Of a DNA stretch of 41,869 nucleotides, positions 3,001-6,000 are shown one piece after another. Origin of the DNA: a virus (taxonomy: Duplodnaviria; Heunggongvirae; Uroviricota; Caudoviricetes); the IMG/VR virus record IMGVR_UViG_2531839449_000046; one strand, given 5' to 3'. Numbering within the stretch: position 1 is the first letter of the stretch; every line of letters starts with the position of its first letter. Made by a program: the position numbers.

Positions 3001-6000
3001 GTAGCTGTTGCGGTATCGCAGTAATGACGAGTGTCAACCAACGTATCCATACCATCGATATCAAGTACGCAAAACCATGTGTGATTCGGCATTTCAACAG
3101 ATGGTATTTGTTGCCCACGTCGACGTTTATCAATAAGACATACACTCACTGCTTGCCTCCTTTACGCAACATCGCATTCAGATATTTGTTTTGATTTACT
3201 GACGGAAAAGAATTTCTCTTAAGTAATTCCTCTCTCGATGGCATTGGCTTTACGCGCTGGCGAATAATCATTTCTGCCGGAAGAATGCTGGGATTGTATG
3301 CAAGTCATCTCATGGTAAATTCCTCAGTTATTACTGATAGCGCCATAGCGTGAGCGGTAATTACGCAGGCGCGGGTCAATTTCAGGGAAGTGGGTATATG
3401 TGGCTTTGCGGAATGGTCGGATTGATGTCTGGTAAATTCGCTCGCGTTCTTCTTTCTCTGCAAGCCATACGCAGTGGCGAAATTCCTTTTCCTCTTTTGT
3501 TTCCTGCGGTAGCGACATTATCCGGTCGTAATTTTTCCTGAATTTATCCAGCACCTCCGATACGGAATTGCCGGAACAGCGGCGCGGGTCATCCGCACCA
3601 TACAGAGGCGCTGGCATAATTAAATCCTTATTTTTCTAAATCAGAATGGGATGGAATCGTCGTATACAGGGGTGTTCTGCTGGTTACTACTTTGCTGCTG
3701 CGGGCCATTTCCTGAAGCTGCAAATCCAATCTTTGCATTCAGTAATTCAAGAGTGATTGATTGACCATTTTGCCCCTGATAAACATCAACCCTGATGTTT
3801 TCTCCGGTAATTTCTACAATGCCACCTTCAACAAGAACACTACGGTAGTAATCCGCTTGCGCTCCCGGCTTGGCAAATACAACGGCGTTGTAGTTTGTCC
3901 ATTCTTTCTTTTTGTCTGGCGATCGTAATACTGAACGCCAGCACGGATGTTGAATCCGATATTTTCCCCGGCCTGAAACTCTCTTGCGGGCTTGTTTAGT
4001 CTTACAGTAATCGAATGTGCCATTAAGCAGCCGCTCCTTCTAATTCGTCTCGTCTGATGTTGTAAACGTCCTGCGCTTTGTGCTGCTCCGGTGTGCCTTC
4101 GAGCATCTTCCACGCTTTGGCGAACGCCTGTTTAAGCTCTTCTACGGTGTTTTTCTGCAATGCTGCGTCAGTGAATGCTTTTAGAACCTGTTCAGGTGTA
4201 GGTGATGGTTTTGATTGCTTTGCTGCTGCGTTCTGCTGATGTTTATGCTCGTCTGTATCTGCATCTTTCGCATCATCAATGCCGAACAAACCATTGAGGC
4301 AATACTTGCGTGCATAAGAGCTTGTAGCTCCCGTAACTTGTGCAGAATCCATTCCTTTCTTGCTTTCTTCCTCTCGTGCAAGAGCGGTTGCCGTATGACT
4401 GTTTTCGCCATCGGTAATAGTTGCCGTGGCTTTCACGTAATACCGATTACCAATCAACACAACTTCATCGCTGATTGATAAAAACAGACCATTCAGTAAC
4501 GGCTTAACGCCTTCAAGAATGTCTTCGCAGCTTCTGTATTTATATTTACCGAATGAGTTGTACTGATTCTTGGGCGCGTTCAGATTTTCCTGAATAGCTG
4601 CCAGTCTTGCGTAAAATTCTTTGCTCATATGATTGTTCTCAGAATGGACATGGCCCAAGGAAATAACGCTGATTTAATACTTCAGTCTTTGCCGCATTTA
4701 AAAATACGCGAACACCTTCACGATCTCCCTTCTGGCGATACATTAACGCCTGCTGCGTGTACATGCGTCTCTGTAACTTGCTCTCCTTCACGGTGGTTGC
4801 AAGTGACATGAATATCTCCTTCGTTACCGATTAATTCTTTCATCTGACGAATGAATTCTTCGTCTGACCAGTTATCTGTAAAACTCATGGGCGGCCTTGT
4901 TGTTTCAAAATATCCCAAAGCTTTTCGAGCAAGCTTTTCATTCTTGGTTGTTTAAAGTCTGCTCCGGTTAAAATATTTTTTCGTGAATGCTGTACCGATA
5001 AAATCGGGTTGAAAGGGCGAACCGATGCCGCCCCTGCAATAGCGAACTGTTGCATAGGATGCTCCTTCTGTTTGATTGCATAACGAAAACGCCTCGAGTG
5101 AAGCGTTATTGGTATGCATATAAAAAGGCCCTCACACTGGAGGGCAAAGAAGATTTCCAATAATCAGAACAAGTCGGCTCCTGTTTAGTTACGAGCGACA
5201 TTGCTCCGTGTATTCACTCGTTGGAATGAATACACAGTGCTTATTCGTACTAATAAAACACCCAATTTTCTGTTTCTTGGTTGTGTCCAAAGTTATATTC
5301 AATATCTGGTATTGATGTATCAATATTCTTCATCCCATCAACAAGAGTTGATACAACAGCCAAATCTTGTTTGATTCTCATTAAATGGTACTTCTTCCGG
5401 CGCAATAAACTTTCAATGGCAAGTTTCTTCGTCGGGAATGCAAAAGATCTTTCGGCATTTTTTGCTACTTTCTTAATTGCATATCTATTTCTCCTTTGTT
5501 TCCATTCCTGTAACCACTGATTTGGTGCTGGTTTAAAATTAACAATCCAATGCGCAGGAACCAACCATGCATAATGATCTGTCTGATGAAAAGCTATATA
5601 TTGAAGTGCGAATATTTTGATTCCATCTTCTTCAACTGTCGCTTGGAATCTCCAGAAAACAGGCATTCCATCATGTTCAGTTTCTGATTCAGGAAAAGGT
5701 ACGCTCCATGATTTTGTCATATCTCACCTCAAATAATTCAGTGCTGTGTTTATTCTGTTGTTTATGCCAAAAATAAAGGCCGCCATCAGGCAGCCTTGTT
5801 GTTCAGTTTACCAAGTTCTCTGGCAATCATTGCCGTCGTTCGTATTGCCCATTTATCGACATATTTCCCATCTTCCATTACAGGAAACATTTCTTCAGGC
5901 TTAACCATGCATTCCGATTGCAGCTTGCATCCATTGCATCGCTTGAATTGTCCACACCATTGATTTTTATCAGTAGTCGTAGTCATACGGATAGTCCTGG

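Follow-up and report, generated by a model that had tools for sequence, protein, structure and literature searches.

Lambdoid phages carry, between the antiterminator gene N and cIII of the leftward early (pL) operon, an interval in which accessory genes are swapped (sieB, orf28, ral, ea10, gp17). Several small genes of this operon counter host defences. Ral alleviates type I restriction-modification, Gam and Abc2 act against RecBCD, and the P22/H-19B gp17 presumably overcomes Fels-1 exclusion. The open reading frame (ORF) analysed here, ORF156, lies at 5250..5720 on the minus strand of a 41,869-nucleotide stretch of DNA (the window) from a tailed-phage record of IMG/VR, IMGVR_UViG_2531839449_000046. 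An earlier account of this DNA, the sequence-only reading, placed ORF156 in the slot for exclusion or defence cargo of lambdoid phages, and ORF156 does lie within this interval of swapped accessory genes. ORF156 shares with Ral, Gam/Abc2 and gp17 the operon, a presumed N-dependent timing, a small size and a modular presence or absence. It differs from Ral, Ea10 and gp17 in sequence: blastp of ORF156 against lambda Ral, lambda Ea10 and H-19B gp17 gave no match at E <= 10, and a counter-defence activity of ORF156 is a role that we infer.

The reading tentatively favoured here takes ORF156 for a delayed-early gene of the pL operon, dependent on N, that serves lytic growth, probably as a host-takeover or counter-defence factor. 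Transcription from pL would reach the gene only when N-modified RNA polymerase passes the terminator at the end of ral. ORF156 would then be expressed after induction or infection and not in the repressed lysogen, would bind a host macromolecule, either protein or nucleic acid, and would act on the host in the manner of Ral, Abc2/Gam and H-19B gp17. Control elements are present upstream: a promoter resembling pL, then elements like boxA and boxB, and the N gene, which is intact. Counter-defence genes are among the operon neighbours of ORF156: ral, and the anti-RecBCD gene abc2, with gam in 933W and lambda and gp17 in H-19B. The occurrence of relatives in phages that are presumably virulent points to a role in the lytic cycle. 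For a lysogen to express ORF156, a promoter would have to be present and none is evident, which disfavours prophage defence.

The gene and its close relatives

ORF156 is 98-99% identical over all 156 residues to gp45 of HK97 (NP_037731) and to L0079 of 933W (AAD25424 / NP_049479). The Escherichia coli protein WP_000167579.1, named 'hypothetical protein', is an orthologue in the same identity class, and H-19B holds the same ORF without annotation. In hmmscan, residues 1-156 aligned with the 156-position profile of phrog_1636 at E = 1e-111. Membership of ORF156 in the phrog_1636 / HK97 gp45 / 933W L0079 family is established at the level of sequence. Over a 701-bp query (5100-5800), the window matches a prophage of E. 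coli O111:H- strain 11128 with 100% identity, and the copy of the gene in that prophage is WP_000167579.1. The gene was found in 83 phage records, mainly of Stx1/Stx2-converting phages, and the ral-ORF156 arrangement in 561 of 5426 complete E. coli genomes (>=80% coverage). ORF156 is thus carried by HK97, 933W, H-19B and many Stx1/Stx2-converting phages, and its arrangement with ral by no less than a tenth of the complete E. coli genomes.

ORF156 is not new. The gene has figured in the annotation of HK97 and of 933W for roughly 25 years, and its function was never characterised. All source names met for its relatives are 'hypothetical' or 'prophage protein', and no entry among HK97 gp45, L0079, WP_000167579.1 and phrog_1636 has an assigned function, so that membership gives no mechanism. 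Full-text literature searches for NP_037731, L0079, WP_000167579 and phrog_1636 returned no paper, and a search for 'HK97 gp45' returned unrelated gp45 proteins only. The description of the gene as uncharacterised in the sequence-only reading is therefore correct: it carries no family annotation, no relative with a solved structure was found, and its identifiers led to no paper. Nothing about ORF156 would surprise a specialist in lambdoid phages; any novelty lies in its function. It is an ORFan that is common in medically relevant Stx phages, well delimited and easy to test, and it does not amount to a discovery.

The 156-residue ORF is intact: it opens with ATG, runs for 156 codons and has a Shine-Dalgarno sequence, GAGGTGA, 5 nt 5' of the ATG. 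The ratio of nonsynonymous to synonymous substitution rates (dN/dS) was 0.075 against HK97 and ~0.16 against a Rosenbergiella homologue, and an alignment of 19 homologues (55-98% identity) contained 42 invariant columns. ORF156 is a genuine gene because of these dN/dS values and invariant columns; judged from the substitution pattern, it is a functional coding sequence under strong purifying selection.

The claim that the ORF is AT-richer than its flanks also stands. Its G+C content (GC) is 36.1%, and 28% at third codon positions (GC3), compared with 47.1% for the whole window and 42-50% for its neighbours (ral 42.3, N 49.6, cI 45.7, erf 45.3). Among 471-bp windows of the whole stretch it ranks at the 3rd percentile; three segments are AT-richer still, making ORF156 the fourth-lowest in GC. 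Homologues elsewhere have a GC below that of their flanks in 10/10 loci checked.

No domain had been recognised in the protein, and none emerged here. Searches against Pfam and NCBIfam gave nothing significant, and the PADLOC-DB v2 defence models gave 0 families at E <= 10. Nor was a transmembrane segment found, as the sequence-only reading had said: the top 19-residue Kyte-Doolittle mean is 0.71, compared with 1.73 for lambda SieB. The same reading had held that ORF156 is not a SieB homolog. This is supported by the lack of a transmembrane segment and of similarity to SieB; the SieB family is absent from the Pfam matches of ORF156 at E <= 10, and blastp against lambda SieB gave one 14-residue match at E = 1.0.

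The pL operon and the inserted cassette

ORF156 lies in the cI-N-...-cIII interval on the operon strand. Its relatives likewise occupy an early-left position on the operon strand in HK97, 933W, H-19B and prophage contigs of several sources, as does ORF156 in the window. In HK97 and 933W the same protein is encoded in the same leftward early operon, upstream of cIII. The difference is one of spacing: in HK97, 933W and one ENA prophage contig the gene comes straight after N, whereas here a lambda-type orf28-ral module separates N from ORF156. The features of the region, in the direction of transcription, are as follows.

6733-7434, minus strand: cI
6702-6681, minus strand: terminator after cI
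6606-6578, minus strand: pL-like promoter, TTGACT-17-TACTAT
6532-6519, minus strand: nutL-like boxA, GGCTCTTTAAACAA, a putative assignment from reading against the known boxA consensus
6517-6504, minus strand: boxB-like hairpin, putatively part of nut
6115-6387, minus strand: antiterminator N, 90 amino acids, intact (PF25694, E = 8e-32)
5970-6056, minus strand: homologue of lambda orf28
5786-5986, minus strand: ral, 66 amino acids, a lambda-type restriction alleviation gene
5797-5776, minus strand: intrinsic terminator that overlaps the stop codon of ral, with a stem of 9 bp and a T-run (free energy, dG, -17.8 kcal/mol; z -3.8)
5241..5738, minus strand: ORF156 cassette, 498 bp, in which the ORF is followed by 9 bp and preceded by 18 bp (ribosome-binding site, RBS, only)
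5250..5720, minus strand: ORF156, 156 codons, ATG start; soluble product of 18.6 kDa, pI 9.1
5239-5209, minus strand: 14-bp stem-loop just 3' of the ORF156 stop, no T-run (dG -23.9 kcal/mol; z -5.6)
5145-5128 and 5107-5088, minus strand: pair of terminator-like hairpins between ORF156 and the cIII-like gene (terminator scan)
4885-5055, minus strand: cIII-like ORF, 56 amino acids, the next operon gene after ORF156, named from resemblance and position

Beyond the cIII-like ORF the operon continues with erf and abc2 and on to xis and int. The cIII-like ORF at 4885-5055 is 'hypothetical' in RefSeq and has no Pfam match; its termini, MQQFAIAG... and ...DILKQQGRP, resemble those of lambda CIII, and it is probably a divergent cIII. 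RefSeq also places a 'frameshifted hypothetical protein' pseudogene at window 6365-6587 (L008 7266-7488), 5' of N and overlapping it. This call is probably spurious because the region carries the boxA and boxB-like nutL elements.

The limits of the cassette come from blastn comparisons of the window with lambda, HK97, 933W and H-19B and from inspection of the junction sequences. Window segments 5118-5240 and 5739-6081 adjoin each other in lambda, at 33923-34045 and 34040-34381. Lambda thus has an exact empty site, and relative to it ORF156 is an insertion of 498 bp (5241-5738) in the intergenic region of ral and ea10. The 6-bp sequence CAGTGC flanks the cassette at 5235-5240 and 5739-5744 and is present as a single copy at the empty site in lambda; either a microhomology joint or a target duplication could account for it. 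The window has exactly two copies of a 19-bp sequence, CATATCTCACCTCAAATAA, which covers the start codon and RBS region on the minus strand; they are at 5718-5736 and 6054-6072. Relative to HK97, 933W and H-19B, the orf28-ral module is inserted between these two copies. The repeat resembles a linker for recombination where genes meet, one that would allow modules to be swapped in register. A consensus scan, which is a weak test, found no sigma-70-like site from 5720 to 5800, the stretch between the ral terminator and the ORF156 ATG.

Hairpins are concentrated in this part of the operon, with 7 terminator-like sites in 4600-6800 compared with 1.8 expected from shuffles. An Rfam scan of 4000-7500 returned nothing. 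The sequence-only reading had set ORF156 between terminator-like hairpins, and they were indeed found on both sides, at 5797-5776 upstream and at 5239-5209, 5145-5128 and 5107-5088 downstream. The upstream terminator is part of the lambda-type orf28-ral module and lies outside the cassette. The stem-loop at 5209-5239 lies in sequence common to the lambda ral-ea10 intergenic region, and may serve the processing or the stability of the RNA made from pL. Of the tandem hairpins, 5145-5128 is common to lambda and both are common to HK97, whose record annotates a 'putative terminator' where they occur. Because they are shared with lambda, which has no ORF156, or are part of the ral module, the flanking terminators are, on this comparison, elements of lambda-type backbone modules and not of the ORF156 cassette.

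Predicted structure and wider family

The sequence-only reading had proposed remote-homology searches and structure prediction as a check. These gave a confident model with no known fold, family or solved relative. AlphaFold2 (AF2) with 19 close homologues produced an unusable model with a predicted local distance difference test score (pLDDT) of 52. With 43 sequences including distant representatives, the pLDDT rose to 92.4 with a predicted template modelling score (pTM) of 0.79. The model has strands at 19-30, 33-46, 50-55 and 83-86, short helices at 56-61 and 66-74, and a 33-residue helix at 98-130, followed by an ordered C-terminal tail with the conserved motif FGHNxETExW. ORF156 is thus predicted to be a single-domain alpha/beta protein with three long beta-strands, a short fourth strand and a long helix.

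The central residues 56-131 contain 18 K/R and 5 D/E. The positions conserved across the family are mostly basic and fall in the strand-4 region and the long helix (K84, K87, R91, R107, K109, H112 and R115). In the predicted model, this pattern is compatible with binding of nucleic acid or of an acidic partner. Since the protein is basic, ORF156 is not a DNA mimic.

Sequence-profile searches of the PDB with two alignments (A1 and A2) gave nothing below E = 0.3, and a second homologue search with the A2 profile gave no named protein. A structure search of BFVD matched uncharacterised phage proteins only. These Foldseek matches (E 1e-7 to 1e-3) came from Erwinia phage phiEa2809, the N4-like phiAxp-3 and RG-2014, and from phages of Sinorhizobium, Rhizobium, Tenacibaculum and Cellulophaga.

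An exhaustive profile search collected 83 proteins at E <= 1e-3, mostly single-domain, 130-165 amino acids long and ~20-27% identical. The wider family comprises phrog_1636, 13631 and 25384, none of which is annotated with a function. A Pfam scan of 43 family members gave scattered single-member matches only, all at E > 0.002. The family is confined to phages, with hosts among Enterobacterales, Vibrio, Pseudomonas, Rhizobiaceae and Bacteroidota. In the plasmid search 11 records matched, all non-mobilizable and all with copies >95% identical; among these records ORF156 was not found on conjugative plasmids. Two long multi-stretch matches (P0063 and P0075) were rejected as relatives, being repeat-driven artefacts.

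Homologues are found in the early-left operon of prophages from several genera and among early genes of phages that are presumably virulent. Lambdoid prophages from other sources again have the homologue in a cI-N-...-cIII/kilR/gam/recT/yqaJ/ssb operon. On a Rosenbergiella contig it stands upstream of recT-yqaJ-ssb, and in Pectobacterium and Brenneria at the xis-int end of a same-strand gene run. In the Pantoea myovirus LIET2 the homologue, gp069 (hmmsearch E = 1.4e-8), is found among early-type genes and one gene from a DNA methyltransferase. The Pseudomonas phage Medea1, which carries an integrase, has it after two DNA methyltransferase genes; the distance from homologue to methyltransferase in LIET2 and Medea1 is one to four genes. 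We take LIET2, phiEa2809, phiAxp-3, RG-2014 and the Cellulophaga and Tenacibaculum phages to be virulent.

A few relatives are arranged differently. In Bas81, NX263 and related contigs the homologue is first in a short operon with a ParB-like protein, opposed to the surrounding structural genes. The opposed homologues of this siphovirus-like group are at L015 2919-3365, L010 3944-4420, L004 3001-3477 and L019 5001-5477. On one JGI contig the homologue is a lone gene in opposite orientation.

The gene is also found broken or missing. The N-terminal fragment families are phrog_18686, with a 61-residue profile, and phrog_37429, and the copy in JLK-2012 (H68), at 88% coverage, is split over two places. 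Many close relatives, including lambda and 2G7b, are without ORF156.

Possible functions of ORF156

Silas et al. (10.1101/2023.04.06.535777) described the Ral-containing region as a phage 'accessory region' with counter-defence genes and triggers of abortive infection (Abi). The conserved motifs of ORF156 do not occur in the gene table of that study. One possible equivalent of ORF156 from that study, orf184, which comes from the Ral region and triggers gop-beta-cII, was considered and rejected, since it is a different protein of 107 amino acids. ORF156 was also without similarity to HK97 gp40/48/49, and a term search of the paper on lysogen expression in Phi24B returned nothing relevant to it.

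Several points count against a lytic host-takeover or counter-defence role. Guilt by association is weak, because the same interval carries the exclusion gene sieB in other phages. Silas et al. (10.1101/2023.04.06.535777) screened 200 accessory genes, and ORF156 is not one of them. The promoter scan would miss weak or non-consensus promoters, and the opposed orientation in Bas81, NX263 and the JGI contig means that a promoter of its own is required there. The N-terminal fragments and the split JLK-2012 copy suggest that the gene may be dispensable and occasionally becomes a pseudogene.

If the host-takeover or counter-defence reading is true, the anti-defence repertoire gains a family without a solved structural relative, which could help explain differences in host range among Stx phages. 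The sequence-only reading had allowed for a host-interaction or anti-phage function; the first is still plausible and the second is unsupported. A broader proposal, that phrog_1636, 13631 and 25384 together form a phage-wide early family that neutralises, or is sensed by, a widespread bacterial immune system or a conserved host nucleic-acid machine, seems on the unlikely side. If true, it would mean that HK97 and the Stx phages harbour an overlooked, new family of broad host range that acts in anti-defence or as a trigger.

In another explanation, judged rather doubtful, ORF156 is a nucleic-acid-binding helper for phage recombination, replication or regulation and is not aimed at host immunity. 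The central region is strongly basic, with the conserved motifs KKV.K, sRFA and RK..Q..HLKR in the strand-4 region and long helix, and the gene recurs beside erf/recT/yqaJ/recE, ssb, ParB-like, RusA and DnaB genes. Proximity to recombination genes, however, is expected for any gene of an early-left operon, and a Pfam search showed none of the known motifs for binding DNA or RNA. Phages that are otherwise nearly identical differ in whether they carry the cassette, and this patchiness argues for an accessory gene rather than a core one. ORF156 could also be a functionless hitch-hiking or decaying ORF kept only by recombination between mosaic modules; phrog_18686, phrog_37429, the split 88% copy of JLK-2012 and the absence from lambda, 2G7b and many other close relatives would fit. 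This is very improbable in view of the strong purifying selection (dN/dS 0.075-0.16), the spread of the family over phages of distant hosts and the confidently predicted fold.

The explanation in line with the sequence-only reading is a single-gene moron for exclusion or abortive infection, which would be expressed in the lysogen and protect it from other phages. It draws on the AT-richness of the gene, here and in 10/10 homologous loci, on its discrete insertion where two genes adjoin in lambda, on the presence of sieB in the N-to-cIII interval of lambda-like phages, on its frequency in E. coli prophages (561/5426 complete genomes) and on the few phages in which the homologue is an opposed stand-alone gene. 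It is nevertheless unlikely, more so than a nucleic-acid helper. ORF156 has no promoter-like site, a strong terminator stands immediately 5' of it, and it is within the repressor-controlled pL operon. The protein lacks a transmembrane segment, is not similar to SieB and matches no PADLOC model. Homologues also occur in phages that are presumably virulent, where protection of a lysogen would be meaningless. The label of anti-phage defence cargo is unsupported on the same grounds: no PADLOC match, no evident lysogen promoter and relatives in presumably virulent phages.

The comparison with sieB is partly justified. The sequence-only reading put ORF156 at a sieB-equivalent position, and both genes do belong to the same N-to-cIII accessory interval of lambdoid phages. 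The sites within it are different, however, as lambda sieB is found between N and orf28-ral, and ORF156 after ral. In the window the gap from N (which ends at 6115) to orf28 (which starts at 6056) is too short for any gene. SieB has hydrophobic segments and, we presume, a promoter of its own; ORF156 has no such segments and no evident promoter.

The term moron is not supported for ORF156 either. Morons, in the sense that Juhala et al. 2000 reportedly gave the word, with HK97 gp15 as an example, resemble ORF156 in being insertions of atypical base composition: ORF156 is inserted between genes adjacent in lambda and is unlike its flanks in composition. An autonomous promoter is defining, and here the likeness ends. 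The cassette has an RBS only. The weak consensus scan found no promoter of its own and no sigma-70-like site, and the inserted DNA contains no terminator of its own, those around it belonging to the backbone. ORF156 is co-directional with the early operon rather than placed in the late region, and in relatives its position is in the pL operon after N.

ORF156 had also been named the best single candidate in the window for an uncharacterised anti-phage or host-interaction function, which is doubtful. The gene at 40803-41711 on the minus strand encodes a 302-amino-acid, multi-pass Acyl_transf_3 protein (E = 6.5e-18), possibly, we assume, an O-antigen acyltransferase. It is convergent with a 645-amino-acid tailspike-like ORF at 38825-40762, and it contains the 471-bp segment with the lowest GC in the whole window (29.5%, 41191-41661). 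This gene is a classic moron and a better cargo candidate than ORF156.

A further AT-rich ORF, at 29228-29761 on the plus strand, encodes a 177-amino-acid, homing-endonuclease-like protein with NUMOD4 and HNH_3 (33.5% GC over 29261-29731). The large ORFs among which it is inserted are presumably genes of the tail region.

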